Origin: a virus
Strand: one strand, 5' to 3'
Virus record (IMG/VR): IMGVR_UViG_3300031964_000784
Length of the DNA: 64,000 nucleotides
Both the position numbers and the translations under genes were made by a program. The first letter of the stretch is position 1. Every line of letters starts with the position of its first letter. Shown in pieces: positions 1-59,217 of this stretch. Under the pieces are notes generated by a model. The model was not told where the DNA came from, did not search any database, and saw only the letters and a program-made list of their open reading frames with translations.

Positions 1-1
1 C

Positions 2-2301: not shown

Positions 2302-2678
2302 TGGGTCGCGAGCTACATTCAGTCAATGGCAAGATCATGGGTGCGTGGTACGAGACCGCCACCGGTAACAAGCTGTATCTTGCGCACCGCGTCAACCGGC
2401 AGATTCACCGCGTTCGCAATGCCTGGTGCGTCGACCTGGCAATACTGGAAAAGTGCAGAACGCGTGACGTGACCGCAATTGGCATCATCAAGCGGGAAAA
2501 AACGCTGAAGATGGTATGGCTGTCACTGGTCGAGGACTTCTTTGGTGACGAGTCGTTCGCCTATTTTGACCAAGTTCGACAGCGCGGATTACCATTGAAC
2601 AAGTTCCGGGTAGATCCGCTAAAGAGTCAGGAATTCATCGAATCCTTTATCAGATTGCCTAAAGCAAGAAGTCAGTAA
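2301..2678 (+). CDS. hypothetical phage protein
   Basis: ATG overlaps the upstream TAA (translational coupling); ORF in operon. Confidence 0.7.
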   Translation: MGRELHSVNGKIMGAWYETATGNKLYLAHRVNRQIHRVRNAWCVDLAILEKCRTRDVTAIGIIKREKTLKMVWLSLVEDFFGDESFAYFDQVRQRGLPLNKFRVDPLKSQEFIESFIRLPKARSQ

Positions 2679-2685
2679 TGACTTA
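2668..2685. promoter_or_regulatory. palindromic operator
   Basis: GAAGTCA-GTAA-TGACTTA; TATAAT at 2692. Confidence 0.75.
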
Positions 2686-2726
2686 TTAATGTATAATAGT
2701 ATCTTAATGACTAAGAAGGGCAAAAA

Positions 2727-3122
2727 ATGATCTTAACAAGCGCATTGCTGTGTTTAAGCCTCAATTTGTACCACGAATCACGCGGAGAAATGATACCTGG
2801 ACAGTACGCTGTCGCAATGGTCACGATGAATCGCGCCAATAGCAACCCGGATAATGTTTGCAAGGTCGTTCTAAAGCCGCATCAGTTTAGCTGGACGACA
2901 AAGATGGTGAAGGGTAACCAGCTAACACAAGCTGGCGAACCGAAAGAAGAGCATGCGTGGTCGGTAGCGCAGACGATCGCCAAAGTAGTGCTGTCGGGCC
3001 GGTTTCGCGACTTCACCGATGGAGCGAAGTTCTACCATGCCAACTACGTGAAGCCAAAGTGGCGTCTGTCGATGGTGCAAACAAAGGTACTTGGACATCA
3101 CATTTTTTATCGTCAAGCATAA
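2727..3122 (+). CDS. SleB-like cell wall hydrolase (Hydrolase_2 family)
   Basis: CLSLNLYHESRGE...GQYAVAMVTMNR...VCKVV..PHQFSW...TDGAKFYHA...LGHHIFY. Confidence 0.9.
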   Translation: MILTSALLCLSLNLYHESRGEMIPGQYAVAMVTMNRANSNPDNVCKVVLKPHQFSWTTKMVKGNQLTQAGEPKEEHAWSVAQTIAKVVLSGRFRDFTDGAKFYHANYVKPKWRLSMVQTKVLGHHIFYRQA

Positions 3123-3137
3123 GTATGTAGTGACTTA
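3120..3137. promoter_or_regulatory. palindromic operator
   Basis: TAAGTAT-GTAG-TGACTTA; first TAA is the stop codon of the hydrolase gene. Confidence 0.65.
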
Positions 3138-3150
3138 ACAGGAGGGAAGT

Positions 3151-4194
3151 ATGAAGCCTTATGGCGTTTTGAGCGACACCCACAACCATAACTGGTCGGC
3201 ATTTGCCACGACTGGCGCCGACGGCATCAACAGCCGACTGCACATGATTCTCGCGGAAACCGAGCGCTGCGCGGCCGAAGTGCTGAATGCGGGCGGCGAC
3301 ACCATGTACCACGGTGGCGACCTGTTCCACGTTCGCGGCAGTATTGCGCCGACTGTATTGAATCCGACGATGGATTGCTATCGCAGCATCATCGAGTCAG
3401 GCGTCAACATCATCATCAATGCCGGTAACCATGACCTTGAAGGCAAAGAGGCGAGCCGCGTGTCGTCGGCGATTACCGCGCTGGAGGGTATCGGCTGCAC
3501 GGTTGTCAACAAGCCAATCGTCAGGGGTAGCATGATGATCGTACCCTGGATTCCAAAGCTAGATGACCTGAAGATGACGTTGGAAGTTACAACGAAATTG
3601 GAGCGCGCAGACCACGACCTGCTGATTCATGCGCCGGTCGACGGCGTGATCGCAGGCTTGCCCGATCATGGGATGGATGGCGCATACCTGGCGTCGCTCG
3701 GTTACCGGCGTGTTTTCAGCGGTCATTACCATTACCACAAGGAAGTGGCGCCAAACGTGTACTCGATTGGGTCACTAACGCCGCAGACCTGGAGCGACAT
3801 CAACGCCAAAGCAGGTTTCCTGATCGTCACCGACGAAAGGGTGAAATGGCACGCTAGTCATGCGCCGTCGTTCGTTGAGATCGACGCCAGCACCGACCCG
3901 GACGATGTGCCGCTGATTGTCGACGGCAACTATGTTCGCTGCCGCATTACCTCGTCCAAGTCGTCGGACGTGGAAGCGATGCGCGAATACCTGACAAGCG
4001 TTGGCGCAAAGGGCGTCGTGATCCTGCCCGACGTGAAAGCAGCAACGGTCGCACGGGTTGGAGCAACGCTGACGGCCGGGTCGTCGCTGGAAGACAGCAT
4101 CAACGGCTATGTCAACACGCTCGGACACAAGAACGGCGGGCTGGTCGGTGCGCTGTGTCAGGACATCTTGAACACGGTAAGGAGCGTGGCATGA
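3151..4194 (+). CDS. sbcD: SbcD/Mre11-like metallophosphoesterase nuclease
   Basis: SDTH, GGDLFH, GNHD, GHYH calcineurin-like motifs; lies upstream of SbcC. Confidence 0.9.
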   Translation: MKPYGVLSDTHNHNWSAFATTGADGINSRLHMILAETERCAAEVLNAGGDTMYHGGDLFHVRGSIAPTVLNPTMDCYRSIIESGVNIIINAGNHDLEGKEASRVSSAITALEGIGCTVVNKPIVRGSMMIVPWIPKLDDLKMTLEVTTKLERADHDLLIHAPVDGVIAGLPDHGMDGAYLASLGYRRVFSGHYHYHKEVAPNVYSIGSLTPQTWSDINAKAGFLIVTDERVKWHASHAPSFVEIDASTDPDDVPLIVDGNYVRCRITSSKSSDVEAMREYLTSVGAKGVVILPDVKAATVARVGATLTAGSSLEDSINGYVNTLGHKNGGLVGALCQDILNTVRSVA

Positions 4195-4595
4195 ACGATC
4201 AGGCAGCACTGACGCGCCAGGAACGCATCGATCGCGGTCAGGCAAATCGTAAAGCGCGGGAGGAGCTTCGGAACGCGGTGCGTTTTTGCATGAAAGAGGG
4301 TGGCGTATCGCCGGCAGACATCAATAAGGCTGCGCACGATATGGCGGTAACGGAGGTGGGCCGCGTTTTGGGCAGTATCACCCTCAATCAGCTAGTGAGG
4401 AATGCTGTCGAGGTGGAAATCAGCCGACAAATGGGACTTGTGCAAAAGGCTTTGCCAGGCGGGCAGAAGATCACCGAAATGATCGCGTTGGCAATGCAGA
4501 AAGAAGCCTCACGGGTCGCTGCCGAATATATCAAAACAAACATCATCGTGTCCGTCAACGACGCCGGCGGGTACAAAGAAGGAGGGTCGTTCTAA
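4191..4595 (+). CDS. hypothetical protein
   Basis: ATGA overlap with sbcD stop; stop overlaps sbcC start. Confidence 0.65.
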   Translation: MNDQAALTRQERIDRGQANRKAREELRNAVRFCMKEGGVSPADINKAAHDMAVTEVGRVLGSITLNQLVRNAVEVEISRQMGLVQKALPGGQKITEMIALAMQKEASRVAAEYIKTNIIVSVNDAGGYKEGGSF

Positions 4596-6541
4596 TGGAT
4601 ATTACAGAACTCAGCATTAAAAACTTCCTCACGATCGGCGAAGCAGAGATCGCGCTGGACTCTCGCGGACTTTTGCTGATTCAGGGCCAGAACGACGACG
4701 ACTCAAGCGCCAAGTCGAACGGTGCCGGCAAGTCATCCATCGTCGACGCGCTGTGCTGGTGCCTCTTCGGCGAGACGGCGCGCGGCGTAACGGGTGACGC
4801 GGTAGTCAATGATACGGCCAAGAAAGACTGCGCGGTATCGGTAACGCTTGACGATGATGGCGTGTGCTATCTAGTCAGCAGGTATCGGAAGCACAAGGTC
4901 AACAAGAATCAACTGATGGTGTGGCAGATTCCAGCCGCAGGTTCGCCGATTGACCTGGCGAAGGGCACCGACAAAGAGACGCAGGAAGTCGTCTTGAAGA
5001 TTCTCGGTTGCAGCCTGGACGTTTTTAAAGGCGCGGTATATGCCGGTCAAGAGGCGATGCCAGACCTGCCAGGCATGACCGACAAGAATTTGAAGCTACT
5101 GATCGAGGAAGCCGCCGGCGTTGAGGTGTTGGCTGAAGCGTACAAGGAAGCGTCCACGCGGTCGCTGGTGGTCGAGCGGGAATTCACGGTGGCGCAGACT
5201 GCCCTGACGAGCCTGCAAGCGCGTCACGGGTCGCTGAATGCCGAGCTGGTCATCATGACAGCCGACATGGACATCTTCGAGGCGGGTCGCAAGGACAAGG
5301 CGCGACTGGAGCTGGCGAAGATCAAGCCGATGCAAGACGAAATCGACTTGCTGAAGGGGCGAATCATTGCATTTGACGAGCCGGCGCTTATCGCGGAACA
5401 GAAAAAGCTAGAAGCCAGTCTGGCCGACCATGCTGCGCAAGCGGGCGAGCTGAAGAAGCTGACCGACGCCGAGCGCGCCGCTGCCGACCATGTGAATATT
5501 GGGCGGACCGGCACGCTCTTGAAGAAAGACATCCACGACAAGCGCACGAAGGCGCTGGCTGACATCGAGTCGCAGATTGGCAAGCCATGTGGTGAGTGCG
5601 GGAAAGCCTACTGCGCTCACGATCTGGAAGCGGCCAAGGTAATGCAGCAAAAGCAGGTTGAAGCCATCAAGAAAGAGATTGTCGAACTTGCGACTGATGT
5701 GAAGACGCGGATCGTAACCCAGGCGACTGCGGCCGGCGCGGTTGAAGCCTTCAAAGCAACCATGACCGACGTATCGGTAGCGATGGCTGAAATCGGCACG
5801 ATACTGGGCACGATCGGCACTATTCAAAGCCTGCGCCGCAGGGTTGAAGACTTTGAAGCCAATATCGTCATCGTAAAAGCCGCAGCCAAGCGCCACCTGA
5901 CCGATGTCAACCCCTGGACAAAGGCGGTCGAGAACAAGACCGCCGACATTGGCAAGACTGAAGCGGACATGGCGACAAAGACTGTCGAATGCTTGGCGCT
6001 TGAAGAAAAGAAGGACATCTACGCAAGCGCGGCAAAGGTATTCGGGCCTGCCGGTGTACGGGCGCACATTCTCGATACGGTCACGCCATTCTTGAACGAA
6101 AGGACAGGTGAATATCTCGGTGCGCTGGCGGACGGCAACATTAACGCTACGTGGTCAACCTTGAGCAAGACGGCAAAAGGCGAGCTGAAGGAGAAGTTCA
6201 ACATCGAAGTGGTCAATGACAAGGGCGCCAAGTCCTTTGCGGGGCTGTCGGGCGGTGAGAAGCGCAAGGTGCGCCTGGCTGCCGCGATGGCGCTGCAAGA
6301 CATGGTGGCGAGTCGGGCAACCAAGCCAATCAATATCTTCATTGCGGACGAAGTGGATCACGCGCTCGACGAAGCCGGCTTGGAGCGCTTGATGGGCGTG
6401 CTTGAAAAGAAGGCAAAGGAGCGCGGCACCGTGTTGGTCATTTCGCACAATTCGCTGTCCGACTGGATCGATAACGTGATTACCGTCACCAAAACTGGCG
6501 GGACATCCAATGTAGCGGGGGCGACCGTTCGTGGCTTCTGA
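4595..6541 (+). CDS. sbcC: SbcC/Rad50-like SMC ATPase
   Basis: Walker A NGAGKSS, coiled coils, zinc hook CGEC, signature LSGGEKRKV, Walker B IFIADEVD. Confidence 0.93.
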   Translation: MDITELSIKNFLTIGEAEIALDSRGLLLIQGQNDDDSSAKSNGAGKSSIVDALCWCLFGETARGVTGDAVVNDTAKKDCAVSVTLDDDGVCYLVSRYRKHKVNKNQLMVWQIPAAGSPIDLAKGTDKETQEVVLKILGCSLDVFKGAVYAGQEAMPDLPGMTDKNLKLLIEEAAGVEVLAEAYKEASTRSLVVEREFTVAQTALTSLQARHGSLNAELVIMTADMDIFEAGRKDKARLELAKIKPMQDEIDLLKGRIIAFDEPALIAEQKKLEASLADHAAQAGELKKLTDAERAAADHVNIGRTGTLLKKDIHDKRTKALADIESQIGKPCGECGKAYCAHDLEAAKVMQQKQVEAIKKEIVELATDVKTRIVTQATAAGAVEAFKATMTDVSVAMAEIGTILGTIGTIQSLRRRVEDFEANIVIVKAAAKRHLTDVNPWTKAVENKTADIGKTEADMATKTVECLALEEKKDIYASAAKVFGPAGVRAHILDTVTPFLNERTGEYLGALADGNINATWSTLSKTAKGELKEKFNIEVVNDKGAKSFAGLSGGEKRKVRLAAAMALQDMVASRATKPINIFIADEVDHALDEAGLERLMGVLEKKAKERGTVLVISHNSLSDWIDNVITVTKTGGTSNVAGATVRGF

Positions 6542-8612: not shown

Positions 8613-8630
8613 TAAGTCGCTAGTGACTTA
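8613..8630. promoter_or_regulatory. palindromic operator upstream of RNR
   Basis: TAAGTCG-CTAG-TGACTTA; CATAAT at 8633. Confidence 0.8.
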
Positions 8631-11249: not shown

Positions 11250-11267
11250 TAAGTAAGTAGTGAGCTA
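11250..11267. promoter_or_regulatory. palindromic operator (degenerate)
   Basis: TAAGTAA-GTAG-TGAGCTA overlapping TATAAT at 11266. Confidence 0.6.
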
Positions 11268-14217: not shown

Positions 14218-14231
14218 TTCGTCGGTCAGGA

Positions 14232-14275
14232 TAAGTAAGTAATGACTTGTTTGTCCTGACCGCAAGTTTTACACT
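14232..14275 (+). promoter_or_regulatory. operator overlapping -35 of sigma70-like promoter
   Basis: TAAGTAA-GTAA-TGACTTG; TTGTTT-17-TACACT. Confidence 0.75.
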
Positions 14276-16705: not shown

Positions 16706-16730
16706 TATAATATAAGTAAGCACTGAGTTA
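16706..16730 (+). promoter_or_regulatory. -10 box followed by operator
   Basis: TATAAT 16706; TAAGTAA-GCAC-TGAGTTA 16713-16730. Confidence 0.7.
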
Positions 16731-17867: not shown

Positions 17868-17885
17868 TAAGTAATCGGTGAGGTA
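17868..17885. promoter_or_regulatory. weak operator
   Basis: TAAGTAA-TCGG-TGAGGTA. Confidence 0.45.
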
Positions 17886-24800: not shown

Positions 24801-24874
24801 TAAGTCATCAGTGACTTGACTACGATTGAAATGTGTAAGACAATTCGAGCATTGGATAAGTAATTGGTGACTCA
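24801..24874 (+). promoter_or_regulatory. promoter bracketed by two operators
   Basis: TAAGTCA-TCAG-TGACTTG 24801; TTGACT-17-GACAAT; TAAGTAA-TTGG-TGACTCA 24857. Confidence 0.8.
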
Positions 24875-27032: not shown

Positions 27033-27227
27033 ATGAACATGAGAGCGCAGCCAGCGGAAGCAGCGGCCAGGCAAGCAAAACGTCCAGCCTACGGCATGGG
27101 AAGTAGTCAGGAGCGTTTTTACTATAAGACGCATGGCAAGCCATTGATGAAAGAGCCTGTGCAGCGGGAGCCTGACTTCGATCATGTCGAGCATCTTTGG
27201 CTGTCTTGTTGGCTAAGTCACCGCTGA
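27033..27227 (+). CDS. hypothetical protein
   Basis: RBS AGGAG. Confidence 0.5.
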   Translation: MNMRAQPAEAAARQAKRPAYGMGSSQERFYYKTHGKPLMKEPVQREPDFDHVEHLWLSCWLSHR

Positions 27228-27231
27228 CATA
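27214..27231. promoter_or_regulatory. palindromic operator
   Basis: TAAGTCA-CCGC-TGACATA directly upstream of the 36-bp repeat. Confidence 0.7.
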
Positions 27232-31983: not shown

Positions 31984-32008
31984 CATAAGTCACTACTTAC
32001 TTTAGTAT
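31980..32008 (+). promoter_or_regulatory. sigma70 promoter with operator filling the spacer
   Basis: TTGACA-17-TAGTAT; TAAGTCA-CTAC-TTACTTT. Confidence 0.8.
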
Positions 32009-32273: not shown

Positions 32274-32459
32274 ATGGCGCATCAGCTCTATCAACTCTAC
32301 GCGGTGGCGTTTTATGTCGTTGGCGCCTTCGTATTGGCAGCAATTCCGGTCGGCGCCGTCTATGGCCTGGATTGGTGTCACCGGAATGGCAAGTTCGGTC
32401 TCGGCTGCCGGACGTTGGCTCGCATCACAAGGATGGCCTCAGTTCGCCATTATCCATAA
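32274..32459 (+). CDS. small membrane protein
   Basis: RBS GAGGT; one TM segment. Confidence 0.5.
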   Translation: MAHQLYQLYAVAFYVVGAFVLAAIPVGAVYGLDWCHRNGKFGLGCRTLARITRMASVRHYP

Positions 32460-32474
32460 GTCATGGGTGAGTTA
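32457..32474. promoter_or_regulatory. palindromic operator
   Basis: TAAGTCA-TGGG-TGAGTTA; TAA is a stop codon. Confidence 0.7.
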
Positions 32475-32780
32475 AGCCGGCTGTGCCGGCTTCTCGTTGC
32501 CCGTGAGCTTTCCTCGGAATTGAAAACAGGAGTCCTAAATCGCCAGGCCAGCCTAACGCTAGCGCTGCATAGCGCTGAAGTGTTGGAGCGCTATAGCGCT
32601 GTAGCGTTTTAGTGTTAAAGCGCCACAGAAACACAGATCCACGGATTTCATCATTCCTACATTTGACCTTCGGTCTTCTGCGAATCAGCCTGCCGCCGAT
32701 CACTGCTGCCTGGCATGGGTCTTCATACTTGAATCTATCGCAACTGATTGCGAATTAATTAACTCTTCAAGGAGAACATC

Positions 32781-33008: not shown

Positions 33009-33412
33009 TAGCGCAACGCTGCCGGTAACGCCTAAAAGCCGCCTATTCAGGCGGCTTAGTCATTAGCGCTGGAGCCTATGTGGCGCCAACCTTATCAGGA
33101 GTGGCATTCCTGCACACATAAGGCGGTTTGGTCAGTTCGGCATCAAGCGCTCGGATCGGCGCCTAAATGCGTCAAATCCTAGGATCGGTCGAAAATCCTC
33201 GGAATCGCCTACTGATATGAATGTGCAGGCGTGCATGTGCGAATATCATGCTTTTATTTGGAGCGTCAAGTGATTTTTACGTGTCCGCGTTAAAACAACA
33301 TGCAAAAATAAATCACACAAAAGCATGAAAACATATTGCATGAGAAAATAAAGCATGAGACTATGTGTCTACTGTATCGCGTGATGCAGACAACGAGATA
33401 AGAAAGCAAATC

Positions 33413-34195
33413 ATGACAACATCGACAACTAAAGCGCTGAGTGAAAAACAAATCGCCGCAAACGTAAAACGCGCCGCGACACTCGCAGCGAAGAAACTTG
33501 TAAAAGAGCAAGAAATCGCAACACTTGCCGCGCTCGAAGCATTGGTTCAACCTGAAACACTAGCAGCAATCGAACCTGAAGCGATTGAAGCAATCGCTGA
33601 AGAAACAAGCGAAGAAAAGCCCGGTTTTTGCGCTAAGTGGTTGATGGTCTTGAATTCGCGTATCGCTGAAGTGTATAGCAAGGACACAGAAAACGTGATT
33701 AAGTACATCACGAAATCGAGTGTTGCAATTGACAACACTGCATCAAAGCCACACTTTGCTGAAATCGCACGCACTATCATTGTTAAGTCACGTAATGCAG
33801 ACAACAAAACAAACAAACGCGATTTTGTTGCCGTCAAAGTGCTGGTGAAAGTCGCACATATCATGTGCGCGCTCGGCCAAGGTTTGAAAAGCGAAATTGA
33901 CAATCACACACAGATTATCGGCCACCAATTGCGCAAATTGATTTACTTGACGGCAATAACTGCAAAGGTAATTCAATGCAAACGCATTGTGTATGATGAA
34001 ATGGATACAGTGCAACAAATCGACCTGAAACACACTGCGAACTACCGGGAGGGTACAGTATCAACACAGGTATCTAGTTCGCGCCAGGCTCTTGATATTC
34101 TCGGTATTTGCTCAATCGTCAAAGGCAAGAAAGATGATGTTATCTCATTGCAAGAGAACGATCGCCGCAATGATTTTGTTGCATTGTTCGCATAA
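33413..34195 (+). CDS. hypothetical protein, remote paralog-like to 22723-23595
   Basis: 260 aa, AT-richer codons; FVAVKV.VKV...GTVSTQVSSSRQAL.ILGI. Confidence 0.75.
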   Translation: MTTSTTKALSEKQIAANVKRAATLAAKKLVKEQEIATLAALEALVQPETLAAIEPEAIEAIAEETSEEKPGFCAKWLMVLNSRIAEVYSKDTENVIKYITKSSVAIDNTASKPHFAEIARTIIVKSRNADNKTNKRDFVAVKVLVKVAHIMCALGQGLKSEIDNHTQIIGHQLRKLIYLTAITAKVIQCKRIVYDEMDTVQQIDLKHTANYREGTVSTQVSSSRQALDILGICSIVKGKKDDVISLQENDRRNDFVALFA

Positions 34196-34210
34196 GTCAC
34201 GACTGAGTTA
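34193..34210. promoter_or_regulatory. palindromic operator
   Basis: TAAGTCA-CGAC-TGAGTTA; TAA is a stop codon. Confidence 0.75.
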
Positions 34211-34264
34211 AGCAAGCGGGTAAAACCGCTTGCAATCAATCAAATCACTATAGGTTATACCATC

Positions 34265-34461: not shown

Positions 34462-34479
34462 TAAATCATTAGTGACTTA
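34462..34479. promoter_or_regulatory. palindromic operator
   Basis: TAAATCA-TTAG-TGACTTA. Confidence 0.7.
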
Positions 34480-37946: not shown

Positions 37947-38588
37947 ATGATGATATTTGGAATCCTGAACCAAAAGGGCGGCGTCGGCAAGACCACGCTA
38001 TCCGTCAACCTGGCCGCATCATTGGCCCGCAATGGCAGCCGCATCCTTCTGATCGACGCCGACCCGCAGGGGAGCGCCCTGGATTGGGCGGCGGCGAGGG
38101 CCGAGGGCGCAGAAGTGACTGCCTTGTTCTCGGTGGTCGGCCTGCCCCGGCCATCTGTCCACAAGGAGATCGGGGCCTTGTCGGCCGGCTACGACCATGT
38201 GATCATCGACGGCCCGCCGCGCGTGACCGACCTGGCACGATCGGCCATGATGGCGTCGGATGTGATCGTTATACCGGTGCAGCCAAGTCCATACGATGTG
38301 TGGGCGGCTGCGGAGGTGATAAAATTGGTCAAAGAGGCTTCTGTATATAAGGAAGCACTGAAATCATGTTTTGTGATAAACCGCAAAATCGCAAATACTG
38401 CGATCGGTAGGGACATTGGAGCCGGTCTGGCGGCTTATAGCACGCACGTACTAAATGCGGCAGTCGCGCAGCGTGTCGTGTTCGCTGAAGCGGTTGCGCA
38501 GGGCAAGTCAATTTTCGAGATTGACGAGCGCGGGAAGGGCGCCAGGGAGATCCAAGACGTCGCAGACGAACTCATAAAGGGGTGGTGA
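37947..38588 (+). CDS. parA: ParA partition ATPase (short, type Ib/ParF-like)
   Basis: [34 protein letters not shown]; no N-terminal HTH. Confidence 0.95.
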
Positions 38589-38589
38589 A

Positions 38590-38811
38590 ATGGCAACGGG
38601 CGGCAAGAAGGTTGTAATCGGGGCGAAACCTAATGTCGCCCGAACGCCAGACAATTGGGTCGACGACAAAGCATCGTCCGACCCAACCAAGCGGCTGACA
38701 CTGGACATACCGGTCGAGTTGCACCGGAGGATCAAGGCCGACTGCGCGGTAAAGGATGCCAGTATGGTCGAGGAGATTACTAAGCTGCTGGAAAAGCGCT
38801 GGCCGAAGTGA
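38590..38811 (+). CDS. ParG-like ribbon-helix-helix centromere-binding protein
   Basis: KRLTLDIPVELHRRIKADCA...SMVEEITKLL directly after parA. Confidence 0.85.
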   Translation: MATGGKKVVIGAKPNVARTPDNWVDDKASSDPTKRLTLDIPVELHRRIKADCAVKDASMVEEITKLLEKRWPK

Positions 38812-39791: not shown

Positions 39792-39809
39792 TAAGTTTTC
39801 GGTGACTTA
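39792..39809. promoter_or_regulatory. operator upstream of minus-strand operon
   Basis: TAAGTTT-TCGG-TGACTTA. Confidence 0.6.
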
Positions 39810-42830: not shown

Positions 42831-42871
42831 TCAAAAATATATGGAGTAAAGTATAAGTCAGTAGTGACTTA
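42824..42871 (+). promoter_or_regulatory. promoter with perfect operator over the start site (helicase/ParB divergent region)
   Basis: TTGCCA-17-TAAAGT; TAAGTCA-GTAG-TGACTTA 42854-42871. Confidence 0.85.
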
Positions 42872-48146: not shown

Positions 48147-48345
48147 TTGGGGCCGCGATGGTTTATTGTTAAATCATCACTTATCTTGTTTTTATGTCAC
48201 TTATCTTTTTCGGTCTCAACATAAATACTAAGTACATTTATTAAGTAGTAAGTAATAAGTAGTTTACGAAAACGAAGGCGAACCCCAAGTGAAGATAAGT
48301 GACAGCTTAACAACTCGCGGAAAAGATAAGTCACGGGTGACTTGA
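48147..48345. repeat. AT-rich locus with inverted half-site repeats
   Basis: TTGGGGCCG 48147; TCACTTATCTT at 48177 and 48197; CCCCAAGTGA 48283; AAGATAAGT(G/C)A at 48292 and 48323; TAAGTA tandem core. Confidence 0.7.
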
Positions 48346-48370
48346 TTAAATCCACAAACTAGGATACAGT
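48327..48370 (+). promoter_or_regulatory. terminase promoter with operator over -35
   Basis: TAAGTCA-CGGG-TGACTTG; TTGATT-17-TACAGT. Confidence 0.8.
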
Positions 48371-48449
48371 GGCTACCTAGACGGCATGTTTCACACGCTG
48401 TTCTAACGGGTGCCCTCTCCGCACCCTTTTTTTTGGCCGAAAGGTTTGT

Positions 48450-49076
48450 ATGGCAACAAGTAAGGTAGCGCCGGCTCCATCAAAGCTGACGCCGAAGCAG
48501 TGGGCCGAAATTGAAGCGCTTTGGGAAGCCGGAACGCTCACGCTCGAAGATTTGAGCAAAAAGTACGGCAAGGCGGTGTCGACCTTCACGCGGCACTTCA
48601 AAGCGAAGGGAACAAAGCGCGGCTCGGCACTCGACGAGGCGAAGCAACGCGCGGCGGAAGCTCTCAAACGCAACGCCGCCGGCGACGCTGCGATATTGGC
48701 CGCCCGCATCTTCGAGACCAAGGACGAAAGTTACAAAATGCAGACCGCTATACAGCGTCTCTTTTGGAACGAAGTGCTGATCGCCAAGAACAACGGCGTC
48801 GATATCGCCACACGTATGCCCAATATCAAGGCGATCAAAGAGATTTCCGCCGGGTTGAGCATTGTTCGAAGCGAGAAGTTCGCCATCCTCGGACTCGACC
48901 GTCCAGATGCGACTGATCCGTCTGAGTTGCCAGAGCTGTTCGTGACCGAGTTGACCGCTCAAGAAATAAAAGAGTTACGCGACAGAGACATTACTGAGCT
49001 AGATGACATTGTGCCCGCCCAGATCGCCCTTGATGACGCTCCAGACGACGAGATAGTCGACGAGAGCGATTCGTAA
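48450..49076 (+). CDS. terS: terminase small subunit
   Basis: N-terminal HTH (LTPKQWAEIEALWEAG..TLEDLSKKYG); directly precedes terL. Confidence 0.8.
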   Translation: MATSKVAPAPSKLTPKQWAEIEALWEAGTLTLEDLSKKYGKAVSTFTRHFKAKGTKRGSALDEAKQRAAEALKRNAAGDAAILAARIFETKDESYKMQTAIQRLFWNEVLIAKNNGVDIATRMPNIKAIKEISAGLSIVRSEKFAILGLDRPDATDPSELPELFVTELTAQEIKELRDRDITELDDIVPAQIALDDAPDDEIVDESDS

Positions 49077-50326: not shown

Positions 50327-50355
50327 TTGACATAAGTCACTGGTGACTGTATAAA
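50327..50355 (+). promoter_or_regulatory. portal promoter with operator in the spacer
   Basis: TTGACA-17-TATAAA; TAAGTCA-CTGG-TGACTGT. Confidence 0.85.
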
Positions 50356-50363
50356 GGCAAACT

Positions 50364-52022
50364 ATGGCAATTAATTCCACATACGGCAATCAGGCTCCTG
50401 ACACGAGCATCATCCCGCCTCCTGGCTCCTCGATCGTGATCGATCCGGCGGACATTGACGGCTTTGCGCCGTTGTCGGATATGTCTGGCGACCAGAAGGC
50501 GCTGAAGAACCTGATTACGCGCAGGCACCCAGAATACGACGCTTATGAAAAGCATTGGCATTTTCTGGAAGCAACGTACGAGGGTGGCCGCGAGTGGTTC
50601 AGGAAACACGTCTTCCGGTACATCAAGGAAGGCGAAATGGAGTACAAGGATCGCCTGGAGCGGTGCTATCGCTTCAACCACACCCGCGAAGTAGTGGACT
50701 TGCTGAACAAGTACCTGTTCAAGCAAAACATCATTCGCAACGAGGCGGACGCCCCCGATAGCGTCAAGCAATTCTGGTTGAAATCGACCAAGAATGGTCT
50801 TGCCATTCGCGACTTTTCGCGACAGGTCTCCAAGAAGGCATCGATTTACGGCCGCGTCGGCGTAGTTGTCGACAATACCGGCGTCAATGGCGCCATCTCA
50901 AAGGCGGACGAAAAGGCGCTCGGCGTTCGCACTTACGCATACGTGGTCGGCCCCGAACAACTGCTAGACTATTCCTATGATGCGAACGGCGACCTAAACT
51001 GGATCACGATTCAGGAAATCTCACGCGACGACCAAAATCCATTCACCTCGAACGGCAAGCAGACACCGCGCTATCGTTTGTGGACAAAGACACAGTGGGC
51101 ACTGTACGAAGAGCAGACCCAGGCGAACAAAAAGAAAGTCATTGTCGAGATCGAATCCGGCACCCATGACCTCGGCGTGGTTCCGGTCATTTTGACGGAC
51201 AACATCATTACCGACGAGGATTATGTCGCGCCAGCACTGATCGATGACATCGCATACCTAGATCGCGCGGTCGCCAATTATCTGTCGAACTTGGATGCCA
51301 TCATTCAGGATCAGACTTTCTCGCAGCTCGCGATGCCGGCCCAGAACGTATTGCCAGGCGAAGACAATTATACCAAGTTGATGGAAATGGGAACGAAGCG
51401 CATGTTCCTGTACGACGGCGAAAGCTCCACCCAGCCGTTCTACCTGTCGCCAGATCCAAAGCAGGCGCAGATGATTCTGGCCGCCATCAACAAGATCATC
51501 AACGAGATTTACCACACCGTCGGCTTGGCCGGCGAGCGAACGAAGCAAGACAACGCCCTCGGCATCGACAATAGCTCCGGTGTCGCCAAGGCATACGATT
51601 TCGAACGAGTCAATGCGCTTCTGCAAGCGAAAGCGGACAGCCTTGAGGACTTTGAAAACAAGCTGGTGAAGTTGGTAGCGTTGTGGAATGGTGAAGAAGC
51701 GGCGGTCAAGGAAGACTACGTTTCCTACCCGGACAACTTCGACACCCGTGGGCTGTATGACGAGTTCGACATCGCGGCGCGCTTGATGCTGCTGACGGCG
51801 CCAGACTCAGTACGGCAACAACAGATGGAAACCTTAATCGACAAGCTCTTTCCGCAACTGGCAAAGGATCTGAAGGCCAAGATGCTGGCGGACTTGAAGA
51901 GTTGGCCGATTGATCCGGTAGAGCAGGCGGCGGCGATGGCTGCCGCCCAGGCGCCGGATCAGCAGGCTTTAGAGAAAGAAACCGACCGGGAGCAAGCGAA
52001 GGCTACCACGTCGGGGAATTGA
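50364..52022 (+). CDS. portal protein
   Basis: Position after terL; 552 aa; RHPEY...W.FLEATYEGG. Confidence 0.85.
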   Translation: MAINSTYGNQAPDTSIIPPPGSSIVIDPADIDGFAPLSDMSGDQKALKNLITRRHPEYDAYEKHWHFLEATYEGGREWFRKHVFRYIKEGEMEYKDRLERCYRFNHTREVVDLLNKYLFKQNIIRNEADAPDSVKQFWLKSTKNGLAIRDFSRQVSKKASIYGRVGVVVDNTGVNGAISKADEKALGVRTYAYVVGPEQLLDYSYDANGDLNWITIQEISRDDQNPFTSNGKQTPRYRLWTKTQWALYEEQTQANKKKVIVEIESGTHDLGVVPVILTDNIITDEDYVAPALIDDIAYLDRAVANYLSNLDAIIQDQTFSQLAMPAQNVLPGEDNYTKLMEMGTKRMFLYDGESSTQPFYLSPDPKQAQMILAAINKIINEIYHTVGLAGERTKQDNALGIDNSSGVAKAYDFERVNALLQAKADSLEDFENKLVKLVALWNGEEAAVKEDYVSYPDNFDTRGLYDEFDIAARLMLLTAPDSVRQQQMETLIDKLFPQLAKDLKAKMLADLKSWPIDPVEQAAAMAAAQAPDQQALEKETDREQAKATTSGN

Positions 52023-53032: not shown

Positions 53033-53112
53033 TCCGTCATCCGTGACTTAGAGCGACTTAGGCATCGGCGAGTAACTTTACTGAATTTTTATTTTTATAA
53101 GGACATTCAAAA

Positions 53113-54027: not shown

Positions 54028-54035
54028 GTTTGCGC

Positions 54036-54064
54036 TTGCAGATAAGTCACGACTGACTTAGAAT
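54036..54064 (+). promoter_or_regulatory. promoter with perfect operator in the spacer
   Basis: TTGCAG-17-TAGAAT; TAAGTCA-CGAC-TGACTTA. Confidence 0.85.
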
Positions 54065-54095
54065 AAGGCGGGTTCGCAAGACCCGCCTTTTTTTT
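54065..54095 (+). terminator. intrinsic terminator after capsid gene
   Basis: AAGGCGGGT-TCGCAAG-ACCCGCCTT-T-tract. Confidence 0.85.
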
Positions 54096-54113
54096 ACATT
54101 TAAAGGAACCGCA

Positions 54114-55004: not shown

Positions 55005-55016
55005 TAGGAATACGAC

Positions 55017-55457
55017 ATGAAACTTAGATTAACTCAGCCTGGCTTCAGTAACTACAACGGTCAAATGGGCGTTGTGTTTTACGAAGCAGGCTTATCTAAG
55101 GGCGATGTTAGCGTAATGGATGCCGTTCGCATTTCGGCATCCATGCTCTGCGAGTGGGAGGACGGATCTAAACCATCCGTCACCCAATCGTTACTGGACA
55201 ACGCCAATACGCCCGCACCGATGTTCAAAACGGGCGCACAGGGTCAGCACGACTTGGCGCCTCAGAAAGACAGGCCCGTACAGGCCCAAGCGACTACGAA
55301 ATCCACCTATACGGTGGAAGAGTTGAGCGCGGTTGCTGACGCGGACGGCATTAGAGGGCTGCGCAAGATTGCCGACCCTCTCGGCATCAAAAGCAACTCG
55401 ATTGCGGAAATGATTAACGCGATCATCAATGCAACCCAGGCGCCAGCAAAGAGCTAA
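55017..55457 (+). CDS. virion morphogenesis protein
   Basis: MKLRLTQPGFSNYNGQMG; C-terminal small helical domain (GLRKIADPLGIK.NSI). Confidence 0.6.
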   Translation: MKLRLTQPGFSNYNGQMGVVFYEAGLSKGDVSVMDAVRISASMLCEWEDGSKPSVTQSLLDNANTPAPMFKTGAQGQHDLAPQKDRPVQAQATTKSTYTVEELSAVADADGIRGLRKIADPLGIKSNSIAEMINAIINATQAPAKS

Positions 55458-55460
55458 GAA

Positions 55461-56354: not shown

Positions 56355-57028
56355 ACAAGTACGACCAATTTGCCGCGCAACTGAGCGATGGCTACAAACT
56401 GTTTGCGCTGGCCCTGACCGGAATGTTCGCACAGACCGTCGCGGCAGGCGTCTCGCCCCATTCGATTACTCGGCTACAAAGCGACGGACTGCAAGCGGTC
56501 AACTCGTTCATGCAGATGTCCAGTGAATCGATCGACCACTACTTGATTACGATCGACGATGGCGTTGTCACGCGCTCGATGCGCGACCGTCAAAGCGCTT
56601 TTCTGGTCACGCTACGGGCGCTCACTACAAAAAACCTGACCAACACGGTGTTGCGCGCAAAAGGATCAACTACAGGGTTCGGCCAGATGCTCAAGGAAAC
56701 GGGCGCGGGCCTCTTCGAAGCACTGATGAAAAAGCGCATGGAGCAACCCTTCACCGCACGCGACTCTGCCGGCCGCAACTGGAATGCAGGCGCGCTGGTT
56801 AGAACCCAGGCCCGCGACCTGGCCTATCAGACCCTTATCGACTCACAAGCGGCAAAGATTGGCACGACCAGCGATCTGGCATCGGTATCGTACAGCGACA
56901 ATATGCACGACTTCTTTGGCCTGCGCTTGTCTCTCACCGGGGCAACACCCGGCTTTCAGACGCTTGCTTCGGTACGGGCGAAGGTTTTTCACCCCAACGC
57001 AAATGCGGAATTGGTGCCGTATGTTTAG
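56351..57028 (+). CDS. virion morphogenesis protein (minor capsid-like)
   Basis: ATGA overlap; RDSAGRNW...FHPNA. Confidence 0.55.
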   Translation: MNKYDQFAAQLSDGYKLFALALTGMFAQTVAAGVSPHSITRLQSDGLQAVNSFMQMSSESIDHYLITIDDGVVTRSMRDRQSAFLVTLRALTTKNLTNTVLRAKGSTTGFGQMLKETGAGLFEALMKKRMEQPFTARDSAGRNWNAGALVRTQARDLAYQTLIDSQAAKIGTTSDLASVSYSDNMHDFFGLRLSLTGATPGFQTLASVRAKVFHPNANAELVPYV

Positions 57029-57371
57029 ACCCAATGCCTACTGCACAATCCAACTGAGCGACGGCACAACGGATGTGTACGGTCAGCCGACCCCAGGATC
57101 TACCGTCACCGAGCGCTGCGCAGTCGTTAAGTTGATGATCGAAAACGAGAAGTCCTCGGTACGCGCAGACAGCTCCGCATCACGCGGCAGCGCCCTTGAG
57201 TTGGAAACGACCTCGGTCATTCTTCTGACGGCGCTAACAAAGGCGCATATCGACGACATCGTGACGATCGACGGCTACAGCTTCCGTGTCAAGGGTATGT
57301 GGCCGCGCGCCAATGTGATGGGCAAGCTCGACCACTACCAGACCGACTTAACCATGTGGGCGTCGACATGA
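57021..57371 (+). CDS. head-tail joining/closure-like protein
   Basis: Position, size, DVYGQP...G.LDHY. Confidence 0.55.
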   Translation: MFRPNAYCTIQLSDGTTDVYGQPTPGSTVTERCAVVKLMIENEKSSVRADSSASRGSALELETTSVILLTALTKAHIDDIVTIDGYSFRVKGMWPRANVMGKLDHYQTDLTMWAST

Positions 57372-57757
57372 ACCTTATGCCGCTTATTACCCTCCTGCAA
57401 ACAAGTGGGCTGGGCGTACCAGGACAGACGATTTTTCTCAACATGATGCCAGCGGAGGCGGATTCGGCTATTCTGCTGCGCAATCCGCTGTCGGGCACCA
57501 AAATCGACTATGAACTGCCGGACTATTATAGGTCTCAGTTTCAATTGATCGTACGAGGCAAGAGCTACAAGGCAGCGCAAGCGGTATCCGACCAGGCGAT
57601 CGCGGCGCTCACACTTGTCAATACGCAGGTTGGGACGCTGTACTTCAACTTCTGCCGACCAAAGACAGAACCGGTGGCGTTCCCGCTATCCAAAGGTAAC
57701 CTGATTGAGTTCAACGTCAACTTTGAAGTCAACTTCGTCGATACGACTCCTCCATAA
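57368..57757 (+). CDS. tail terminator/minor capsid-like protein
   Basis: TIFLNMMP...FQLIVRG..Y...FNVNF. Confidence 0.55.
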   Translation: MNLMPLITLLQTSGLGVPGQTIFLNMMPAEADSAILLRNPLSGTKIDYELPDYYRSQFQLIVRGKSYKAAQAVSDQAIAALTLVNTQVGTLYFNFCRPKTEPVAFPLSKGNLIEFNVNFEVNFVDTTPP

Positions 57758-58263
57758 TGGCTGTCGAATACGAAGGCACTGATGAAGTAATTCTCAGCTT
57801 CAAGCGCGTCGATCTGACCGCGCGGAACCTGTCGATGAAAAAGCTGATCGAGGCGGGCGCCGCCATTCAAGAACTCGCACAGAAGTTCGCCCCAAGGGAC
57901 GAGGCTAACCTGGAAAACGCGATCATGATGACGCCAGATCCAGATGCGTCACAGCCGCGTGGCGTCAATGGTCAGTTCGGAAGTTGGGCCGGAACCGAAG
58001 TAACGGTGTATGTCGATGGCGATGCACCTGTGCCAGAGCGCCCAGGCAAGACAGTTGGCGACTATGCCTACGAGCAGGAAACGCACCTTGAACCTGCTGG
58101 TAATTGGCAGCTCGGCGAAGGGTCGAGGCAAAAGCAGGATGGTCAGTCCGAAACTGTCGGTGGCGCCTATATGGAACGGGCATTCGATCAGATCACCGAG
58201 GGCGGCTTTCTGGATGACGCGCTATCGGTTTGCCTGACAGAGATTGTTGAATCGTTAAGCTAG
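57757..58263 (+). CDS. HK97 gp10-like tail completion protein
   Basis: AQKFAPRDEANLENAI...YAYEQE...GAYMERAF. Confidence 0.6.
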   Translation: MAVEYEGTDEVILSFKRVDLTARNLSMKKLIEAGAAIQELAQKFAPRDEANLENAIMMTPDPDASQPRGVNGQFGSWAGTEVTVYVDGDAPVPERPGKTVGDYAYEQETHLEPAGNWQLGEGSRQKQDGQSETVGGAYMERAFDQITEGGFLDDALSVCLTEIVESLS

Positions 58264-58280
58264 GAAGTTAGTCTGTTTTG

Positions 58281-58306
58281 TGGTATAGTAAGTCACCACT
58301 GAGTTA
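58281..58306 (+). promoter_or_regulatory. tail tube promoter (extended -10) with operator
   Basis: TGgTATAGT; TAAGTCA-CCAC-TGAGTTA 58289-58306. Confidence 0.8.
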
Positions 58307-58341
58307 TCTGGCACCCATACACCCTTTGCTAAGGAAATTTC

Positions 58342-59202
58342 ATGAGCGATACAAGAAACGTAAAACTTGGCGTCTGCCAGGTGCTTTACAATGGCGTTGA
58401 TCTTGGGTACACCCAAGGCGGCGTTGAAGTAACCGTTAAGACGGATACCCACAAGGTCAACGTCGATCAATTCGGTAAGTCGACCATCAACGAATACATC
58501 CTCGGTCGCGATATTAGCGCCAAGGTGCCGCTGGCTGAAACCACGCTGCAAAACTTGATCACGATTATGCCTGGCTCGATCATGGTAACCACCGGCGGCG
58601 GCGCTGCGGCATCCGGCTCGATTACCGTTGTCACTCAACCAGCTTCCGGCAGCACCATCGTCGTCAATGGCGTCACCTTCACGTTCGTCAGCGAACTGAC
58701 CGGCGCAAACAACCAAGTGCTACTAGGCAGCACCGTCGCCGCTACCGCAGCCGCATTGAACGAAGCGCTGGTATCTTGCACTTCGTTCGGTCAATTTGCA
58801 GCGGTATCGGAAGCGTCGTACGAAGTCACTGGTGCAGTTGTTGGCGTTACCTTCAACGTGACGGCGGCCGCTGGCAATGCGTTCACGCTTGGAGCAGGAA
58901 CAGCAGGCGCCGCAATCACGATGTCCGGCACAACTCTGTTGGGTGGCACCGATGGTATCAACGACTACGTTGCGGTCTCGAACGGCATCGGCACCAACCT
59001 GTTGACCAACGCGAAGCCACTGCGTCTGCACCCCGTTTCCAACGCAATTGGCGACACTTCGGACGATTTGGTGATTCCGTTGGCCGCAACTGCCGGCGCG
59101 TTGACCTTTGCCTACAACTTGGAAAAAGAGCGAATTTACAACGTCGACTTCAACGGCTACCCGAACTCGTCTACCGGCCAACTTTTTACGGTTGGAAACT
59201 AA
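58342..59202 (+). CDS. major tail tube protein with inserted domain
   Basis: VKLGVCQVLYNGVDLGYTQGGVEV...ERIYNVDFNGY; central Gly/Ala/Thr-rich insert. Confidence 0.8.
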   Translation: MSDTRNVKLGVCQVLYNGVDLGYTQGGVEVTVKTDTHKVNVDQFGKSTINEYILGRDISAKVPLAETTLQNLITIMPGSIMVTTGGGAAASGSITVVTQPASGSTIVVNGVTFTFVSELTGANNQVLLGSTVAATAAALNEALVSCTSFGQFAAVSEASYEVTGAVVGVTFNVTAAAGNAFTLGAGTAGAAITMSGTTLLGGTDGINDYVAVSNGIGTNLLTNAKPLRLHPVSNAIGDTSDDLVIPLAATAGALTFAYNLEKERIYNVDFNGYPNSSTGQLFTVGN

Positions 59203-59217
59203 GTCACAGGTGACTTA
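59200..59217. promoter_or_regulatory. perfect palindromic operator
   Basis: TAAGTCA-CAGG-TGACTTA; TAA is the tail tube stop codon. Confidence 0.8.

Follow-up and report, generated by a model that had tools for sequence, protein, structure and literature searches.

The 64,000-nucleotide stretch of viral DNA analyzed here (the window, in whose coordinates positions are given unless a contig is named) contains an 18-bp palindrome, TAAGTCA-N4-TGACTTA, in many of the gaps between its genes, and the question is what reads this word and to what effect. This DNA comes from a temperate siphophage of ~110 kb that belongs to the SSU5/nickie/Rhizobium-B1VFA supergroup. The window shares with this supergroup the capsid, terminase, portal and replication-recombination genes in the same order, with TerL, portal, RecA, SbcCD and helicase in common, and its major capsid protein is 52-59% identical to those of SSU5, ANB28 and JGB6. 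The element is a prophage integrated, with int and xis, beside the tRNA-Cys gene of a peat bacterium. Its temperate lifestyle is indicated by the integrase, an excisionase-like gene, two HTH regulators and the tRNA-Cys attachment upstream of the window, and by the ParA/ParG pair inside it; ParA is a marker of the temperate, plasmid-capable lineage, while the present copy sits integrated at tRNA-Cys.

Distribution of the palindrome in the window

With up to two mismatches, the palindrome matches the window 21 times compared to 0.10 matches expected, a ~200-fold enrichment, and none of 100 shuffled sequences reaches 21; with up to three mismatches, there are 28 matches compared to 1.26 expected. 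The sequence-only reading had listed about 22 copies, and all 22 positions are indeed occupied, 20 of them with at most two mismatches and two (11250 and 17868) with three; one further copy at 53033, missing from that list, brings the number to about 23. The full consensus, built from 101 sites with co-directional flanking genes in the window and three relatives, is wRR-TAAGTCA-CYRG-TGACTTA, an 18-bp palindrome with half-sites conserved independently of each other. The palindrome was absent from the literature searched. The copies in the window, which are putative operators, and the relevant neighboring features are as follows, with the strand given where one is assigned:

2668-2685: copy, 1 mismatch; intergenic, upstream of gene 2727
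3120-3137: copy, 2 mismatches; the SbcD-like gene (3151) begins 13 nt on
8613-8630: copy, 1 mismatch; precedes the class II RNR gene (8674)
11250-11267: weak copy, 3 mismatches; its final TA begins a TATAAT hexamer
14232-14249: copy, 2 mismatches; abuts the -35 of TTGTTT-N17-TACACT; inside a longer inverted repeat
16713-16730: copy, 2 mismatches; immediately 3' of a TATAAT-like hexamer
17868-17885: weak copy, 3 mismatches; gene 17905 begins 19 nt on
24801-24818: copy, first of a pair, 1 mismatch; divergent gap; abuts the -35 of TTGACT-N17-GACAAT
24857-24874: copy, second of the pair, 2 mismatches; 56 bp downstream of the 24801 copy
27214-27231: copy, 1 mismatch (TGACATA arm); gap preceding gene 27249
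31986-32003, plus strand: copy occupying the spacer of TTGACA-N17-TAGTAT (14.4 bits)
32457-32474: copy, 1 mismatch; GC hairpin at +1 after the copy
34193-34210: copy, 1 mismatch; followed by a hairpin
34462-34479: copy, 1 mismatch
37947-38588, plus strand: ParA-type partition ATPase, found only in motif-bearing relatives; no copy nearby
38590-38811, plus strand: ParG/RHH-like small partner of ParA (weak match)
39792-39809: copy, 2 mismatches; border of a 522-bp divergent gap
42854-42871: perfect copy common to two divergent promoters; leftward, occupies the spacer of TTGAAA-N17-TATACT (helicase gene); rightward, lies over the start site of TTGCCA-N17-TAAAGT (ParB-like gene)
48327-48344, plus strand: copy at the late (TerS) promoter, abutting the -35 of TTGATT-N17-TACAGT; centered near -41.5
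48408-48434, plus strand: leader intrinsic terminator; past the late promoter, ahead of the TerS start (48450)
50333-50350, plus strand: copy at the TerL-portal junction, occupying the spacer of TTGACA-N17-TATAAA
52989-53006, plus strand: copy abutting the -35 of TTTACT-N17-TATTGT; upstream of the major capsid gene
53033-53050: additional copy, 2 mismatches
54043-54060, plus strand: perfect copy occupying the spacer of TTGCAG-N17-TAGAAT; the capsid gene stop lies 16 nt before
54065-54089, plus strand: strong intrinsic terminator, immediately 3' of the 54043 copy
58289-58306: copy, 1 mismatch; begins at the final T of TATAGT; precedes the Ig-domain tail gene
59200-59217: perfect copy; hairpin 22 nt on

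The sites avoid coding DNA: 18 of the 21 lie in gaps of the ORF map, where intergenic bases account for 13.5% of the window, and the remaining three are in gaps that hold just short, doubtful opposite-strand ORFs. The intergenic or stop-overlapping placement initially described is thus borne out, and the motif is not as frequent within ORFs or in shuffled sequence. The leading TAA had been taken for the stop codon at four copies; this is the case at 3120, 34193 and 59200 (ORFs 2727-3122, 33365-34195 and 58342-59202), and at 32457 for one of two overlapping frames. Because only 15 of the 55 gaps of at least 30 bp hold a site, the palindrome is not a feature of every gap. Several sites lie in the interval from a stop codon to a terminator, or have a start codon just 7-14 nt away, positions at which simple promoter occlusion does not obviously fit.

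Promoter phasing and conservation among relatives

An independent scan for sigma70-like boxes around 231 sites of seven genomes, compared with shuffled flanks, detects three preferred registers, enriched 7- to 14-fold. Thirty -10 boxes begin at site position 17 (4.4 expected; gene-strand bias 23:7), 28 at position 39 (2.0 expected; 27:1) and 13 at position -4 (1.8 expected; 10:3). The three placements noticed in the window, namely in the spacer, at the -35 box and just after the -10 box, are therefore reproduced and are significant across this larger set. A recognizable promoter overlaps ~26% of the sites, and about three quarters have no promoter of at least 9 bits; given this fraction and the share of gaps with a site, the statement of the sequence-only reading that all virion genes are silenced directly is too strong. 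Its 'flat one-switch circuit' is doubtful as well: the late (TerS) promoter is followed, ~40 nt downstream, by an intrinsic terminator conserved in the window and four relatives, which suggests an extra antitermination step.

The TAAGTCA word or symmetric variants of it are present in 20-47 copies in every temperate relative tested, with hosts of 41-61% GC. Two Rhizobium phages carry other variants, TAAGTAA-N4-TTACTTA and TCAGTCAAT-type, and SSU5 has ~26 copies of TARGTAA-N4-TTACYTA, whereas the lytic relatives nickie/phiK7B1, ANB28 and JGB6 do not carry the palindrome. The motif occurs together with ParA and with a gene for an XRE (Cro/C1-type HTH) protein in the window's genome, in G001, G003, G004, G006, G007 and G010, and also in B1VFA, RHph_N1_10 and an Acinetobacter plasmid; all three are missing from the lytic ANB28, phiK7B1 and JGB6. 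Synteny of sites across clades is seen ahead of the genes for SbcD, the ParB-like protein, the capsid and the tail protein. In particular, the SbcD-upstream site (3120) is syntenic in G001, G006, G007, SSU5, B1VFA and RHph_N1_10, the 42854 site in G001, G003, G004, G006, G007, G010, B1VFA and RHph_N1_10 but not in SSU5, the capsid-upstream site (52989) in seven relatives and the tail-gene site (58289) in eight. The layout of promoter and palindrome at TerS (48327) is the same in G004, G006, G007 and G010, and the TerL-portal site (50333) is syntenic in these four genomes as well.

The candidate reader and its rivals

The XRE gene, which encodes a product of 147-154 aa, is located ~11.5 kb upstream of the window, beside the integrase gene, in a lysogeny module with the order tRNA-Cys, integrase, excisionase-like gene, 237-aa HTH protein, XRE protein:

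L278 354-818, minus strand: XRE gene; contig 100% identical to window 1-1046 where the two overlap

A 60-aa ORF and the early genes point away from the XRE gene, with operator-like sites between, an arrangement resembling that of the lambda CI-Cro type; the sites on this contig are degenerate at 887 and 987 and perfect at 1375. Every genome examined has degenerate sites ahead of its XRE gene, mostly two to four and in a few genomes one, compared to a background expectation of ~0.04 per kb. The window's own genome and eight relatives share this pattern, which would fit autoregulation. The homologue in the Escherichia coli phage-plasmid Cyrano is the 'putative repressor' CYRAN_45, with a palindromic core just upstream of its gene. 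SSU5 lacks the 3.9-kb segment that in Cyrano holds the repressor and integrase genes and yet keeps its sites, which suggests that the XRE reader would be a repressor rather than an activator and would be dispensable for lytic growth.

The XRE protein yields weak matches to HTH_3 and HTH_26, with Pfam scores under the curated cut-off. In the AF2 model (pLDDT 79.7), the predicted N-terminal five-helix HTH domain resembles those of 434 Cro and P22 C2 and superposes on them with target-normalized TM scores of 0.76-0.83 and an rmsd of ~2 A; the Foldseek E-values for this fold are above 1e-3. Homodimer formation is predicted with a score of 0.32, the best of three controls scoring 0.00; at least 91% of contacts recur between the runs, with partner pLDDT of at least 76. 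Of the proteins solved as pairs, 21 of 30 attain the homodimer mark, and of those solved as single chains, none of 23. The XRE protein is the likely reader of the word, in view of its co-occurrence with the motif, the degenerate sites ahead of its gene and its predicted dimerization. We infer both the identity of the binding protein and repression upon binding, and assign a probability of about 0.65 to the reading that the palindrome is the operator of the XRE repressor encoded upstream and serves to silence promoters in the lysogen. The dimeric repressor proposed at the outset, as opposed to an activator, is matched at the DNA level by a dimer-type word and by repressor-type promoter positions, the operator function itself being a prediction.

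It is rather unlikely that the palindrome is a DNA operator with another reader, such as the 60-70-aa ORF (Cro-like), the 237-aa HTH_3 protein, a ParG-type protein or a host factor. What ties the XRE protein to the word is correlation, ParA tracks the motif equally well, and G001 has the same word and yet a divergent XRE homologue, ~30% identical and differing at the start of the recognition helix. The small divergent ORF next to the XRE gene is conserved among G006, G007 and G010, a small ORF occupies the matching position in Cyrano and an Acinetobacter plasmid, and in classical switches Cro uses the repressor's operators too; however, the 60-aa ORF has no detectable DNA-binding domain. The 237-aa protein, for its part, is confined to the window's genome and G007, and a partition reader would be expected to have its centromere by parA/parG, at 34.5-39.8 kb, where there are no copies. 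Reading by an element-encoded protein is supported because the same word spans 41-61% GC and the two Rhizobium phages use variants, which also makes a host factor unlikely. The regulon of a host global regulator is likewise disfavored: the motif does not follow host taxonomy, and the 3 kb of host flank scanned contain no copies.

Activation is an alternative to repression by the XRE protein, in the form of either a two-way regulator that represses from the spacer and start-site positions and activates as a class II factor from -41.5, or a factor that times the lytic phase. The position -41.5 is that of class II activators, lambda CI activates at PRM, and 28 of the 231 sites fall exactly in this register, among them the ones that precede TerS and the capsid gene. 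Moreover, operators of immunity repressors normally diversify, and conservation across bacterial classes, as seen here, is unusual, which counts against the immunity reading and in favor of activation or timing. We nevertheless consider this alternative distinctly unlikely: 43 promoter-linked sites occupy positions plausible for repression only, both the -35 and the -10 box of promoters in the -41.5 register are good (G007, for example, has TTGACA-N17-TATAGT), so that no activator is needed, SSU5 grows lytically without the XRE gene, and neither the gene nor the sites occur in the lytic relatives.

Roles outside transcription, namely centromere or partition, packaging, nucleoid organization or nuclease protection, appear very unlikely. 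Two ParB-like proteins and the ParA/ParG pair are encoded, and the perfect 42854 copy is immediately upstream of a ParB-like gene, but the site-free lytic relatives equally have ParB-like genes, the sites are promoter-phased with a gene-strand bias, and packaging or a centromere would not require the observed avoidance of coding DNA. As an RNA element, the palindrome would form an intercistronic hairpin (7-bp stem, 4-nt loop) with a role in processing, stability or translational control, as might be suggested by the many copies just past a stop codon and 7-30 nt ahead of the next start, and by the change of C6:G13 to A6:T13 between clades with pairing kept. This is scarcely credible given that, among the 231 sites of seven genomes, 273 one-arm changes break a pair compared to three compensatory changes (2.2 expected by chance), that there is no G-U-compatible excess on the sense strand (36 versus 28), and that copies accompany genes of either orientation, also occur in gaps with divergent promoters and are phased with promoter hexamers. 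With compensatory changes at chance level, a hairpin, processing or terminator element is disfavored.

Dispersed operators in other phages and the proposed regulon

The design is not new in kind, as shown by the dispersed operator sets of P1 C1, L5 stoperators and phiC31 CIRs. P1 is a phage-plasmid whose C1 repressor acts on many dispersed operators, and the likeness lies in one repressor with operators scattered over a ~100-kb temperate genome at promoters of unrelated gene blocks. The P1 operators, however, are 17-bp and asymmetric, in contrast to the 18-bp perfect palindromes here, which would suit a symmetric dimer, and the candidate reader here is of the Cro/C1-type HTH family; the likeness to P1 is one of layout, and membership is not claimed. 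The stoperators of mycobacteriophage L5 gp71 are 13-bp, asymmetric and orientation-dependent. L5 resembles the present system in that each genome has ~25-35 sites, placed in short gaps between genes and in many cases away from promoters, and a stoperator-like role could explain the copies between stop codons and terminators; unlike in L5, the window's sites are symmetric and a sizeable fraction is promoter-phased. The repressor of Streptomyces phage phiC31 recognizes conserved inverted repeats (CIRs), again a palindromic word at many intergenic loci of a temperate phage, in an unrelated host, phage lineage and repressor family. Compared with 434, P22 C2 and lambda CI, the XRE protein lacks the S24 peptidase domain, its C-terminal half being a predicted helical dimerization domain, and the sites are genome-wide, whereas those systems confine their operators to one or two control regions. 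A further likeness lies within the supergroup: the enterobacterial SSU5-like phage-plasmids share syntenic positions and the repressor family (Cyrano CYRAN_45) with this prophage, but differ in the half-site (TAAGTAA as opposed to TAAGTCA) and are found as plasmids, whereas the element studied here is tRNA-integrated in an uncultured peat bacterium.

The regulon seems to be undescribed; its general principle is already known from other phages. In the proposed regulon, a dimeric Cro/C1-type (XRE) repressor encoded by the phage would use the 18-bp palindrome as its operator. About a quarter of the sites overlap host sigma70-type promoters, in the spacer (-28 to -11), against the -35 box (-50 to -33) or at the start site (-7 to +11), where the bound repressor would exclude RNA polymerase; the other sites might control weaker promoters or function as roadblocks. 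During lysogeny, the repressor would occupy 25-45 sites genome-wide and keep most viral genes off.

The element and its dispersed palindrome

The window derives from peat metagenomes, and in the search for RNA evidence its sequence was matched only in peat DNA runs. It encodes RecA, SbcCD, a class II ribonucleotide reductase, ThyX, a UvsW-like helicase and two ParB-like proteins, together with the structural components TerL, portal, scaffold, major capsid and tape-measure protein. No close phage was found in GenBank; the capsid protein is 50-59% identical to those of Xanthomonas phage JGB6, Stenotrophomonas phage ANB28 and Pseudomonas nickie-like phages, and the same range covers enterobacterial SSU5-like phage-plasmids and Rhizobium phages. 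A metagenome contig that matches window positions 1-1046 at 100% identity extends leftwards and, with its neighbours, reaches the end of the prophage, where uvrC, pgsA, two tRNA-Gly genes and tRNA-Cys on the host side are followed by a tyrosine integrase, an HTH_17 excisionase-like gene, a 237-aa HTH_3 protein and a 147-154-aa XRE-type protein. Beyond the XRE gene, a divergent 60-aa ORF is followed by CobT-like and replication genes that lead into the window. Given this gene order (tRNA-Cys, integrase, regulators) and its relatedness, the element belongs to the SSU5 supergroup as a temperate, integrated member. It encodes a partition pair at 37947-38811, made up of a ParA ATPase and a ParG-like protein, yet it is inserted beside tRNA-Cys and has both an integrase gene and an excisionase-like gene (on L280, outside the window); it may be capable of both plasmid and integrated prophage life. 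Most ORFs at about 13.4-41 kb, several of them on the minus strand, have no homologue in any compared relative, GC content drops to 48-50% at 32-38 kb, and the contig of the closest relative (G006) ends at the start of this block, which looks like a variable cargo region.

The 18-bp palindrome TAAGTCA-N4-TGACTTA has 21 matches in the window at up to two mismatches, compared with 0.10 in dinucleotide-preserving shuffles, and 28 at up to three mismatches, compared with 1.26 expected. All 22 positions listed in the sequence-only reading hold a copy, those at 11250 and 17868 with three mismatches, and one more, absent from that list, is located at 53033. On a longest-ORF map made in this analysis, 18 of the 21 copies are intergenic, with 13.5% of bases intergenic, and the other three lie in gaps holding only short opposite-strand ORFs; a copy is present in only 15 of the 55 gaps of at least 30 bp. 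Alignment in gene orientation of 101 sites with co-directional flanking genes, from the window and three relatives, yields the full palindrome TAAGTCA-CYRG-TGACTTA as the consensus, with a purine-rich triplet upstream. No hexamer is conserved at any single offset among these sites; a fixed composite promoter was rejected since neither a -35 nor a -10 box keeps one position, and an upstream TTTGCGC word was discarded as a promoter part because it is mostly coding.

No other palindrome family was found in the window; the whole genome of SSU5 contains a second dispersed palindrome, AAACAA-N-TTGTTT, in 11 copies. The long gap upstream of TerS (48176-48303) contains half-site-like words, namely three occurrences of AAGATAAGTGAC, two of them inverted, and four of TAAGTA in an AT-rich stretch, which may be auxiliary binding sites. 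We also observe that the copy at 14232 sits within a longer inverted repeat, GGTCAGGA ... TCCTGACC (14221-14263).

Among 231 sites in seven genomes sharing the word of the window, 273 departures affect one arm only and three are compensatory, compared with 2.2 expected by chance, and G-U-compatible changes are not more common on the sense strand (36 versus 28). An RNA hairpin was rejected on this pattern, which indicates that the half-sites are kept as sequence, the kind of conservation that a DNA-bound symmetric dimer would impose. A promoter for a phage RNA polymerase, or a hairpin promoter of the N4 type, was rejected as well: no polymerase of this sort is encoded, and the long ORF at 60033 encodes the tape-measure protein.

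Distribution of the word and its candidate reader

A scan of IMG/VR for the exact word recovered numerous contigs, 100-119 kb long and with terminal repeats, that each contain several copies; the same scan of genome contigs gave mostly single chance matches and added little. Ten whole records contain from 10 copies (up to one mismatch) to 47 (up to two), compared with 0-6 for the reversed word. The GC content of the measured records ranges from 44% to 61%, and their conserved genes are only about 65-78% identical to the window at the nucleotide level. Variant words occur in related elements, with about 40 copies of TAAGTAA-N4-TTACTTA in Rhizobium phage B1VFA, a TCAGTCAAT-ATTGACTTA-like word in RHph_N1_10, about 26 copies of TARGTAA-N4-TTACYTA in SSU5, and TCAGTCA-N4-TGACTGA in an Acinetobacter baumannii phage-plasmid. 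In clades with different variants, syntenic copies lie upstream of the genes for SbcD, the ParB-like protein, the capsid and the Ig-domain tail protein. No copy is present at the corresponding places, or anywhere else, in the lytic relatives phiK7B1 (Nickievirus), ANB28 and JGB6, which also lack any other over-represented non-coding word.

When ORFs were compared between genomes with and without the motif, two families alone separated the two sets, being found in most or all motif-bearing genomes and in no motif-free one: ParA, and a protein of 146-162 aa with an HTH domain of the Cro/C1 type, the XRE protein. An HMM of this protein matches the genome of the window itself (L278:354-818, minus strand, E 3e-41; L278 lies outside the window), the motif-bearing temperate relatives G001, G003, G004, G006, G007 and G010, B1VFA and RHph_N1_10, with no match in ANB28, phiK7B1, JGB6 or SSU5. 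By tblastn, it corresponds to the 'putative repressor' CYRAN_45 of the Escherichia coli phage-plasmid Cyrano, which is among the genes expressed in an LF82 lysogen in a published transcriptome (PMC9928086). Klebsiella phage-plasmids have homologues too, as do over 1000 plasmids from Klebsiella, Escherichia, Acinetobacter, Yersinia and Salmonella, and the neighbourhood is constant: a CobT-like gene, a small ORF, the divergent repressor and an integrase. In IMG/VR, the repressor or TerL family is represented on at least 590 contigs. Degenerate copies of the word precede the XRE gene in every genome examined, mostly two to four and in a few genomes one; the genome of the window has two, along with a perfect copy preceding the first early gene. 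Two degenerate half-copies at L278:850-905, upstream of the repressor gene, together make up a larger inverted repeat, with TAAGTAACCGCTGA and TCAGCGGTGACTT some 25 nt apart, which may serve for looping or for autoregulation at low affinity.

The XRE protein shows weak matches to HTH_3, HTH_31 and HTH_26, and in its AF2 model (pLDDT 79.7) the N-terminal domain consists of five helices, as in 434 Cro and P22 C2, and the C-terminal half is also helical. The homodimer prediction scored 0.32, whereas none of three controls exceeded 0.00. Among proteins solved as pairs, 21 of 30 attain this mark; among those solved as single chains, 0 of 23 do. With at least 91% contact agreement between runs, a partner pLDDT of at least 76 and a predicted interface in the C-terminal half, the modelling supports a putative dimer.

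Several other candidates for the reader were rejected. ParG and ParB are disfavored because parAG lacks a site cluster and ParB-like genes occur in the site-free lytic relatives too, and the 237-aa HTH_3 protein is not conserved among motif-bearing genomes. A repressor within the window was rejected as well, given that the XRE-family HMM was negative on six-frame ORFs and that no HTH regulator emerged when 40 window ORFs were searched against Pfam. Comparison of recognition-helix residues with the half-site variants in 11 sequences gave no clear rule.

Promoter placement and the direction of control

Sigma70-type promoters were scored with a position weight matrix at a threshold of 9 bits; the matrix is E. 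coli-like, and the host is a proteobacterium. Three registers stand out. In register 17, the -10 box begins at site position 17 and the operator fills the spacer (-28 to -11); in register 39, the -10 begins at position 39 and the operator extends from -50 to -33, so that the TT(G) of the -35 comes from its final bases; in register -4, the -10 begins at position -4 and the operator covers the start site. These registers have 30, 28 and 13 matches, respectively, compared with 4.4, 2.0 and 1.8 when the motif is kept and the flanks are shuffled, and they are oriented toward downstream genes in ratios of 23:7, 27:1 and 10:3. The three placements described from sequence inspection are thus reproduced, and the -35-abutting register explains the common TGACTTG variant, which makes the TTG of the -35. 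About three quarters of sites have no promoter at the 9-bit threshold, and a strict scan of 42-60 kb found 9 promoters compared with 8.9 in shuffles, that is, no overall enrichment, although both divergent promoters at 42854 were called.

Predicted promoter and terminator features at copies of the palindrome in the window

31986: spacer register, TTGACA-N17-TAGTAT
50333: spacer register, TTGACA-N17-TATAAA
54043: spacer register, TTGCAG-N17-TAGAAT
48327, 52989, 24801, 14232: -35-abutting register
42854: perfect copy shared by two promoters, within the spacer of the leftward one and over the start site of the rightward one
48342-48450: late (TerS) promoter with a conserved GC hairpin/T8 terminator about 40 nt downstream
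54043-54089, 59200-59260, 32457-32500, 34193-34240: operator, then a terminator-like hairpin within 1-22 nt

The near-consensus promoter at the TerL-portal junction (50333-50366) has its predicted start at or beside the annotated portal ATG; either the portal mRNA is leaderless or the annotated start codon is misplaced.

Two of the three registers, spacer and start-site, would permit only repression, and promoters in the third themselves have strong -35 and -10 boxes, such as TTGACA-N17-TATAGT upstream of TerS in the relative G007. SSU5 provides a further comparison. Both sides of the repressor region align between SSU5 (JQ965645, 42.6-42.7 kb) and Cyrano (39.1-43.0 kb), and a 3.9-kb segment of Cyrano, which includes the small ORF and in all carries four small genes besides the integrase and the putative repressor, is absent from SSU5. 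SSU5 retains its 26 sites, and its isolation was as a phage that forms plaques. Provided that the reader is the XRE protein, lytic growth can dispense with it, since SSU5 grows without the gene; this would fit a repressor and not an essential activator, and absence of the segment would explain the lytic behavior of SSU5.

Direct silencing of early genes and all virion genes by one protein, proposed in the sequence-only reading as a flat one-switch lysogeny circuit, fits the late operon poorly. In five genomes (the window, G004, G006, G007 and G010), the region upstream of TerS has a common layout: the operator, an overlapping -35, a -10, a leader of about 35-45 nt, a GC-rich hairpin with a T8 run, a ribosome site and the start codon. 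In phage lambda, PR'-tR' likewise places a terminator within the late-operon leader, and the resemblance suggests that the late genes would need a Q-type antiterminator in addition to loss of repression. Terminators also accompany other copies: those at 54043, 59200, 32457 and 34193 each follow a stop codon and precede a terminator-like hairpin, and SSU5 has the same arrangement at 5472, 15590, 21938 and 67776. The tandem at SSU5 5472 is 3' of the capsid gene, as at window 54043. The predicted start site at 54043 falls within the 5' arm of the terminator stem, and transcripts begun there would escape the terminator that halts upstream transcripts.

Relation to known systems and significance

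P1 C1, L5 gp71 and phiC31 provide precedents for a single repressor acting through numerous scattered operators. The present set differs from these in being strictly palindromic, in having a candidate reader that is probably of the Cro/C1 type, and in its conservation over an unusually wide host range. In the literature searched on SSU5, Nickievirus, B1VFA and the operator words, the motif was not described. The design is known, and what is new for the window is the variant half-site, the integrated copy and the environmental host; for the window itself, this is a well-supported annotation and no new principle. Regulation by the word and its binding by the reader are both inferred from sequence throughout.

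The core AGTCA-N4-TGACT is shared by peat prophages, apparent Bradyrhizobium-, Brucella- and Faunimonas-type plasmids and Acinetobacter baumannii phage-plasmids. A broader reading, to which we give only about one chance in four, is that the word and the XRE reader make up one 'frozen' code in temperate SSU5-like elements of Alpha-, Beta- and Gammaproteobacteria, with very broad cross-immunity groups and a possible two-way switch at the sites centered at -41.5. Under such a code, shifts of specificity would be rare and symmetric (C6:G13 to A6:T13) because 25-45 operators must change together, and the rarity of such shifts would, if true, make for the very broad immunity groups.

SSU5-like elements include pMT1 of Yersinia pestis and pHCM2 of Salmonella Typhi, and SSU5-like plasmids of Klebsiella, E. 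coli and Acinetobacter can carry resistance genes. Lysis-lysogeny control in this group is essentially uncharacterized, and a 2024 review names no regulator for it. A defined word and a candidate repressor, both present in temperate relatives and both missing from lytic ones, make the switch directly testable; immunity groups could be predicted from sequence, and temperate members could be distinguished from lytic ones.
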